7,507 nt of DNA from Escherichia coli. GTDB taxonomy: Bacteria; Pseudomonadota; Gammaproteobacteria; Enterobacterales; Enterobacteriaceae. Shown here in pieces: positions 7,075-7,446 of this stretch. Under the pieces are notes generated by a model, which was not told where the DNA came from, made no database searches, and saw only the letters and a program-made list of their open reading frames with translations. Both the position numbers and the translations under genes were made by a program. Each line of letters begins with the position of its first letter. Within the stretch, counting starts at the first letter, position 1. The DNA lies in the NCBI RefSeq assembly GCF_003334315.1, contig NZ_QOWR01000092.1; one strand, given 5' to 3'.

Positions 7075-7446
7075 ATGACTATGTACGCAAAATCCTTTAT
7101 CGCTCTTGATGGCAACGGACGTCTGACGGGCGCCCGTACTGCACAGGCCGCACCTTATGCTAACTACACCTGCCACTTGTGTGGCAGTGCACTCAGATAC
7201 CATCCGCAATACGACACTGAACTTCCCTGGTTTGAACACACTGACGACAGGCTGACAGAGCACGGTCAACAGTGCCCTTATGTCAGGCCGGAGCGCAGAG
7301 AAATACAGTTGATTAAACGTCTGCAGCAATTCGTACCGGATGCCTTACCCGTGGTGCGTAAAGCCAGCTGGCACTGCAGACAATGTCACCACGATTATTA
7401 TGGGGAGCGGTACTGCACACACTGCCAGACTGTCAACGACGGATGA
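7075..7446 (+). CDS. Cys-rich putative zinc-ribbon protein, about 121-123 aa, function unknown
   Basis: ORF with GAGGAA upstream; tandem ATGs at 7075 and 7081, the latter with better SD spacing. Contains CxxC pairs (CHLCGS; CRQCHH...CTHCQ) plus a lone Cys (CPY). Lies directly downstream of the Rep-like gene. Confidence 0.6.

Follow-up and report, generated by a model that had tools for sequence, protein, structure and literature searches.

What is encoded by a short, Cys-rich open reading frame (ORF) that lies beside a Rep-like gene on an Escherichia coli island, and does this position tell us anything about its function? The question is raised by the ORF at 7075-7446 (+ strand) of a 7,507-nt stretch of E. 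coli DNA, hereafter the window, whose translation gives a protein of 123 aa with seven Cys residues, comprising three CxxC pairs (C33/C36, C101/C104, and C114/C117, counted from position 7075) and one single Cys (C67), along with H55. Pfam matches, 337 homologues in a collection of 5.8 billion proteins, and Nei-Gojobori dN/dS values of 0.06-0.21 against orthologues from other genera confirm that the ORF is a genuine gene, beyond chance, and the gene is under purifying selection. Annotated E. coli chromosomes match the window DNA at 99.9-100% identity, and the 1.5-kb segment at 6000-7507 is covered to at least 80% in 3467 of the 5426 complete E. coli genomes. The gene is already known, being catalogued and annotated in thousands of genomes (the RefSeq name for the gene starting at 7081 is 'putative zinc ribbon protein', WP_122986814.1 / WP_000270974.1), and the finding is not new.

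The ORF and its CxxC pairs had been proposed in a previous reading of the DNA without database searches (the sequence-only reading), and both hold, but the boundaries have to be moved to a start at 7081 instead of 7075 and a native end at 7430. RefSeq places the start codon at the second ATG, position 7081 (MYAKSF...), which is also the one kept across genera. When 32 upstream regions from different species were aligned, this was the sole conserved ATG, with an AAGGA Shine-Dalgarno sequence 8-9 nt before it; in the window the corresponding element is GAGGA (7068-7072, + strand), 8 nt 5' of the ATG. The first ATG is missing from most relatives, lies only 2 nt off the Shine-Dalgarno sequence, and adds two codons (ATG ACT, 7075-7080, + strand) from a non-conserved, in-frame upstream position. 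Scans for sigma-70 promoters and terminators gave nothing convincing in front of the gene, and an Rfam search of the window returned no matches.

The 3' boundary was set by comparing the window with the uninterrupted allele in E. coli MS7163 (locus L002) and with a matching genome (locus L001). Native DNA stops at 7430, and position 7431 onward is the terminal inverted repeat (TGTCAACGACGG...) of the insertion sequence IS100 (IS21 family), one end of which occupies 7431-7507 and contains the 3' end of istB from about 7497 (- strand). The native part of the gene (7081-7430, + strand) amounts to 116 full codons and two bases of a Thr codon, which is completed by the first base of IS100. Since the sequence from 7431 belongs to IS100, which supplies the last base of codon 119, the VNDG codons, and the stop (7432-7446), residues 120-123 (VNDG) and the stop codon are foreign. 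The hexamer CCAGAC at 7425-7430 is the target-site duplication; in L001 the other IS100 end lies about 2 kb away and is followed by the second copy of CCAGAC. This insertion after codon 119 has removed the native 16-residue tail, GGFSIPRTTQEEICEF, from a protein of 133 aa that natively ends in ...CQTGGFSIPRTTQEEICEF, and its junction is present in only 11 of the 5426 complete E. coli genomes. The finding is therefore an ordinary one, namely a catalogued zinc gene whose last 16 codons have been cut off by an insertion sequence. Elsewhere in the window, a complete IS66-family element (tnpA, tnpB, and tnpC) is found at 552-2864 (+ strand), with a GC content of 0.57-0.64 that is above the rest of the window, and AAA ATPase pseudogene fragments lie to its left (about 115-473); the IS load of the island is heavy (IS66, IS100, and ISL3).

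The protein had been thought to resemble no nameable family, which does not hold: it is a member of the family defined by DUF7828 (PF25165; residues 4-89, E 2.1e-31) followed by Zn_ribbon_11 (PF11682, formerly DUF3279; residues 96-119, E 3e-6). This domain order, which is required for the family, is present in the window protein, and the family assignment stands although the window allele is truncated. The DUF7828 domain (7084-7341, + strand) is a CoiA_N-like zinc finger with putative ligands C33, C36, H55, and C67 (counted from 7075), next to which comes an alpha-helix; the C-terminal C4 zinc ribbon (7360-7431, + strand) has the form C101-x2-C104-x9-C114-x2-C117. An alignment of 36 full-length homologues from both types of the family described below (types A and B, 26-98% identity to the query) bore out the expectation that the Cys positions are conserved: C31, C34, F51, H53, W97, and C99 (numbered from Met 7081) are invariant, and C65, C102, C112, C115, and the Gly just after the last Cys are conserved in at least 90%. 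Thus, where one or two zinc ribbons had been suggested, the conserved residues and the predicted fold point to a putative zinc-binding protein that has two metal sites, of which one is of the C2HC type (CxxC...WFEH...C) and the other is a C4 ribbon (CxxC-x9-CxxC). The family is small: in an exhaustive HMMER scan of 1.84 billion cluster representatives, no more than 158 clusters had an E value of 1e-3 or below, and many of those were fragments. The protein had no matches in NCBIfam, PHROGs, or PADLOC; searches of PDB sequences, whether started from the single sequence or from a profile, did not rise above noise (E above 0.08); and a Foldseek search against AFDB50 had only family members among the matches listed. 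A literature search found nothing published on DUF7828/Zn_ribbon_11 proteins.

Comparison with the intact allele revealed a second gene of the same kind. In L002, the gene studied here overlaps by 13 nt a downstream gene (10471-10880), which is frameshifted in that genome. Its counterpart in L001 (18431-18841) is intact and encodes a 136-aa protein that is 31% identical to the first one (E 1e-14) and has the same Pfam architecture; it sits outside the window, just past IS100, which has shifted it about 2 kb away. A second paralogue was found directly downstream in 23 of 30 loci. It is therefore almost certain that the ORF is the first gene (type A) of a tandem, overlapping pair of paralogues (types A and B), each of about 130 aa with two zinc sites, which belongs to the conserved backbone of AlpA-containing islands in Enterobacterales. 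It is also well supported that each paralogue consists of an N-terminal CoiA_N-like C2HC finger, a helix, and a C-terminal C4 ribbon, with no catalytic domain. When A and B were joined by a Gly/Ser linker, AlphaFold gave a pTM of 0.30 and a mean pLDDT of 63 from a shallow alignment with 13 paired sequences, so this model offers no support for a defined heterodimer. One further protein of 238 aa (P0233) carries an additional N-terminal DUF7828-like finger (CADCSCPL...WFDHD...C) in front of a complete type-B protein and is effectively a fused tandem.

Does the truncated copy in the window genome still work, or is it a dead remnant whose product became functionless upon IS100 insertion? In the window allele, VNDG takes the place of the complete C-terminus (T-G-x-[YF]-S after the last Cys), so that the (Y/F)S motif and the near-invariant Gly that follows the last CxxC-x-T are gone; the partner gene, instead of overlapping by 13 nt as it normally does, is found past the IS element of about 2 kb; and the island appears to be decaying, with IS66, ISL3, and many pseudogenes nearby. 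However, all eight metal ligands survive and both domains are intact, the frame stays open with a stop only four codons into the IS, the allele persists in 11 sequenced genomes, and the partner gene is intact in L001. Taken together, a dead remnant is conceivable but falls somewhat short of an even chance.

The motif of the zinc protein resembles the N-terminus of CoiA, so we carried out a profile-profile comparison with Bacillus CoiA proteins that carry CoiA_N (PF25164), PF06054, and PF25166. Using hhalign, the DUF7828 domain aligned with the CoiA N-terminus (query 5-57 on CoiA 1-55) with a probability of 95.5% and a score of 42.4, compared with 9.9 +/- 2.1 (maximum 15.8) for 100 column shuffles and 8.7 for the reversed alignment; the Pfam CoiA_N match for type B is weak (E 0.35). 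The nearest fold relatives of the zinc protein are the nuclease-linked N-terminal fingers of CoiA, which acts as a ssDNA endonuclease and bears a zinc finger at its N-terminus (bioRxiv 10.1101/2024.02.06.579203). Neither the PD-(D/E)XK nuclease (PF06054) nor CoiA_C has a Pfam match in the zinc protein, which, with a length of only 123 aa (133 aa in its native form), is therefore not a CoiA but has the finger alone in common with it. This link provides a concrete, testable handle on function, namely possible binding to single-stranded or structured DNA.

To map the distribution of the family, one genome per GTDB species was scanned with the type-A subfamily alignment as the query, which resulted in 37 loci. 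The named hosts belong to Enterobacterales and include Salmonella, Citrobacter, Hafnia, Yersinia, Serratia, Budvicia, Mixta, and Erwinia. Some loci (L003, L004, L031, and L039) are filed under other names, as MAGs or assemblies of Collinsella, Bacillota, Chryseobacterium, and Clostridiales; these are likely to reflect contamination or mis-binning, and the gene layout of L031 is nearly identical to that of a Citrobacter locus (L032). No member of the family was found in 50,697 phage genomes, and out of 2.9 million viral contigs only two contain one. Among 72,556 plasmid records, 33 carry the family, and some of these records are actually chromosomes. A phage or satellite origin was rejected on the phage and viral counts, and the family is a small, Enterobacterales-restricted one carried on chromosomal islands and not a phage gene.

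The island in the window is CP4-44-like and adjoins cobU and tRNA-Asn, which corresponds to the CP4-44 site of K-12, where the zinc/HUH module is no longer present. Upstream of the zinc gene lies a YfjJ/YagK-type HUH gene (6252-6821, + strand; RefSeq 'inovirus Gp2 family protein'; Pfam YagK_YfjJ_C, E 1e-47, and REP_ORF2-G2P, E 5e-5), which has an HYH sequence as its HUH motif and a YLAK tyrosine motif and ends 253 nt before 7075. An AlpA-family helix-turn-helix regulator is encoded at 4519-4725 (- strand), on the strand opposite to the zinc gene. We counted synteny by an iterated HMM search of the ORFs in all loci, taking as informative those with at least 1.5 kb of upstream sequence. A Gp2-like gene was present upstream on the same strand in 24 of 24 informative type-A loci, ending 134-1491 nt before the zinc gene, and an AlpA homologue was likewise found upstream on the same strand in 24 of 24. 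The co-occurrence with the Rep-like gene that the sequence-only reading had asked about is thus constant, with an HUH gene within 1.5 kb upstream in every one of these loci from different species; what that reading overlooked in the setting is the 3' fusion to IS100, the tandem paralogue, and the equally constant AlpA gene. We show here that the zinc pair is translationally coupled and forms a fixed module with the AlpA and HUH genes.

Several other features of this part of the island were also observed. In E. coli, the block formed by alpA and a gene for a 205-aa hypothetical protein (3823-4725, - strand) is on the strand opposite to the Gp2-like and zinc genes, whereas in Salmonella, Mixta, and others (L004-L006 and L044) it is on the same strand and directly upstream, which implies that the E. 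coli island has undergone an inversion or rearrangement. A gene-poor gap of about 0.9 kb (4930-5850) is the insertion site of ISEc43 in MS7163. Divergent from the HUH gene, 5852-6055 (- strand) encodes a 67-aa protein with an N-terminal CxxC...CxxC zinc ribbon and a C-terminal transmembrane helix, which RefSeq lists as hypothetical (WP_001297900) and whose PHROG matches are all of unknown function.

These islands often hold several Gp2-like paralogues, which belong to three subfamilies. The HUH and Tyr motifs are retained in the Gp2-like genes adjacent to type A. Both are lost in the third subfamily (Pfam UCP030791-like), which is found just after type B (L005 6790-7386, L009 6906-7454, and L044 10822-11403) and, given the loss of the HUH and catalytic Tyr motifs, is probably a non-catalytic derivative. 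The subtype of the upstream Gp2-like gene changes while type A stays similar, being YfjJ-like in the window and in Budvicia and a 190-aa type in Salmonella and Mixta. Moreover, no zinc protein is encoded beside yfjJ in K-12; the HUH gene can thus do without one, and the coupling is one-way. The constant HUH neighbour bears on the earlier suggestion that the product could be a primase-type zinc-binding domain, which here would serve replication begun by the Rep-like protein. That suggestion draws only on this neighbour and the CxxC motifs, and three points speak against it: neither zf-CHC2 nor any other primase zinc family was matched in Pfam at E up to 10, gene calling in the neighbourhood of seven related loci gave no Toprim or AEP primase, and the profile and fold relatives are CoiA_N fingers. 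We consider a primase role extremely improbable.

Upstream of the start, a strictly conserved leader motif (GGGACGG-N6-SCTGCSTG) is located at 7034-7054 (+ strand), 27 nt 5' of position 7081. It lies 25-46 nt before every type-A gene. Of 48 loci from several genera, 25 have the exact pattern, each of them a single time and at no other place. RNAalifold detected neither structure nor covariation in the conserved leader, and the motif may be an operator or a translational leader. A second, repeated sequence, TTTTTTACG, has copies at 4814-4822 (- strand), 6205-6213 (+ strand), and 6907-6915 (+ strand), that is, roughly 85-92 nt upstream of alpA, 39-46 nt upstream of the Gp2-like gene, and some 165 nt upstream of the type-A gene, and it recurs at these fixed distances in many related loci. 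The window contains three exact and three one-mismatch copies, compared with 1.15 expected when one mismatch is allowed, and the shorter core TTTTTTAC has 88 non-redundant occurrences in about 630 kb of loci. Some copies of TTTTTTACG or TTTTTTAC are the T-tract of terminator-like hairpins; the remaining ones may be a shared regulatory element. There is also a perfect 7-bp inverted repeat (CACTGAC-N10-GTCAGTG, 6898-6921) 77 nt past the stop codon of the HUH gene, with TGTTTTTTAC in its loop. The loop is conserved across genera and the stems differ; this hairpin might serve the HUH protein as a nick or origin-type site, or be a mere junction element.

A conserved leader of this kind suggests tight regulation, possibly autoregulation, and in many loci the small zinc protein, whose predicted pI is about 7, comes just after the AlpA regulator. 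Leader, location, and neutral pI would all suit a small zinc-finger transcription factor acting, in the manner of Ogr/Delta of P2/P4, on RNA polymerase or on promoters belonging to the island or a helper element, and not on DNA processing. Yet no Ogr_Delta or other transcription-factor family was matched in Pfam at E up to 10, the family is missing from the phage genomes and nearly so from the viral contigs counted above, and the nearest fold relatives are nuclease-linked fingers, which make such a regulator unlikely.

The genes around the module were examined as well. On its opposite arm, the backbone has genes for YeeP-like GTPase, DUF932, anti-restriction, and RadC proteins, and islands with int, alpA, Gp2-like, and RadC genes are a widespread mobile class (bioRxiv 10.1101/2024.08.29.610337). 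Defence cargo adjoins the module in related islands, such as Dpd in Citrobacter and AbpAB and RnlAB in CP4-57, and, together with the anti-restriction and RadC genes, it would fit a component or sensor of an island-borne anti-phage defence or anti-defence system. However, the cargo past the module varies by locus (Dpd, autotransporter, or metabolic genes) while the zinc gene is in the constant backbone, and PADLOC matches none of its families to the protein; a role in defence is thus very unlikely.

With these alternatives weighed, we tentatively propose that the zinc pair assists island DNA processing as a non-catalytic accessory that binds DNA or a partner, a suggestion based on analogy that remains well below an even chance. 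The DNA-binding accessory factor named as the other option in the sequence-only reading is likewise a possibility. Its grounds are that the finger is fused to a ssDNA nuclease in CoiA and is free-standing here, always with YfjJ/YagK-type HUH and AlpA genes. HUH enzymes act on ssDNA at hairpins, and because the CoiA finger also accompanies a ssDNA nuclease, an accessory role is the most economical one. Proteins A and B would then be non-catalytic subunits that bind nucleic acid or a partner and help the HUH protein or proteins of the island to find or process island DNA. The step served might be replication or mobilisation after AlpA-triggered excision, and expression of the zinc genes might be controlled via the conserved leader motif. 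Against such a role, type A does not co-vary with the adjacent Gp2-like/HUH subtype, HUH genes occur without zinc proteins, and the neutral pI is not typical of a strong DNA binder. That the proteins bind DNA or a partner, and that they have a part in replication or mobilisation of the island, is what we infer from the relatives and the setting, and the window copy, which lacks the conserved C-terminal residues, may be inactive. The explanation as a whole, in which the identity of the pair is combined with an accessory role in island DNA processing, has in our judgement about an even chance of being right.

A more specific version is also conceivable, in which the zinc proteins would be trans-acting DNA-recognition subunits for YfjJ/YagK HUH nucleases and, with AlpA, would make up an undescribed replication or mobilisation module by which tRNA-linked islands amplify or transfer after excision. 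We regard this version as improbable. Such tRNA-linked islands are very common, occurring in over 60% of the complete E. coli genomes, and most E. coli genomes have the backbone of AlpA, HUH Gp2-like, and double-zinc genes, as do many pathogenicity and defence islands. Were the module to drive replication or mobilisation of these islands, it would explain the spread of 'cryptic' islands. The interest therefore lies in this very common AlpA/HUH/zinc-pair backbone and not in the ORF at 7075-7446 itself.

Compared with known systems, the zinc protein shares single features with several of them. The zinc domains of DnaG- and T7-type primases are likewise Cys-rich zinc modules near replication genes, but they have no profile match to this protein and different fold relatives. 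Ogr/Delta proteins, too, are small zinc proteins, and the elements they come from make use of AlpA/Vis-type regulators as well. As late-gene activators of P2/P4, however, they differ in size and ligand spacing and show no sequence match, and the zinc family is not found in phages. Members of the DUF7828/Zn_ribbon_11 family have the same domain order, and the window allele differs from them by its C-terminal truncation and its fusion to IS100. With CoiA, the N-terminal finger (CoiA_N, PF25164) is held in common, although the first His of the CoiA HFAH motif is replaced by Trp in the zinc protein (WFEH), which also has an extra C4 zinc ribbon; the zinc family is carried by enterobacterial islands instead of belonging to competence regulons.
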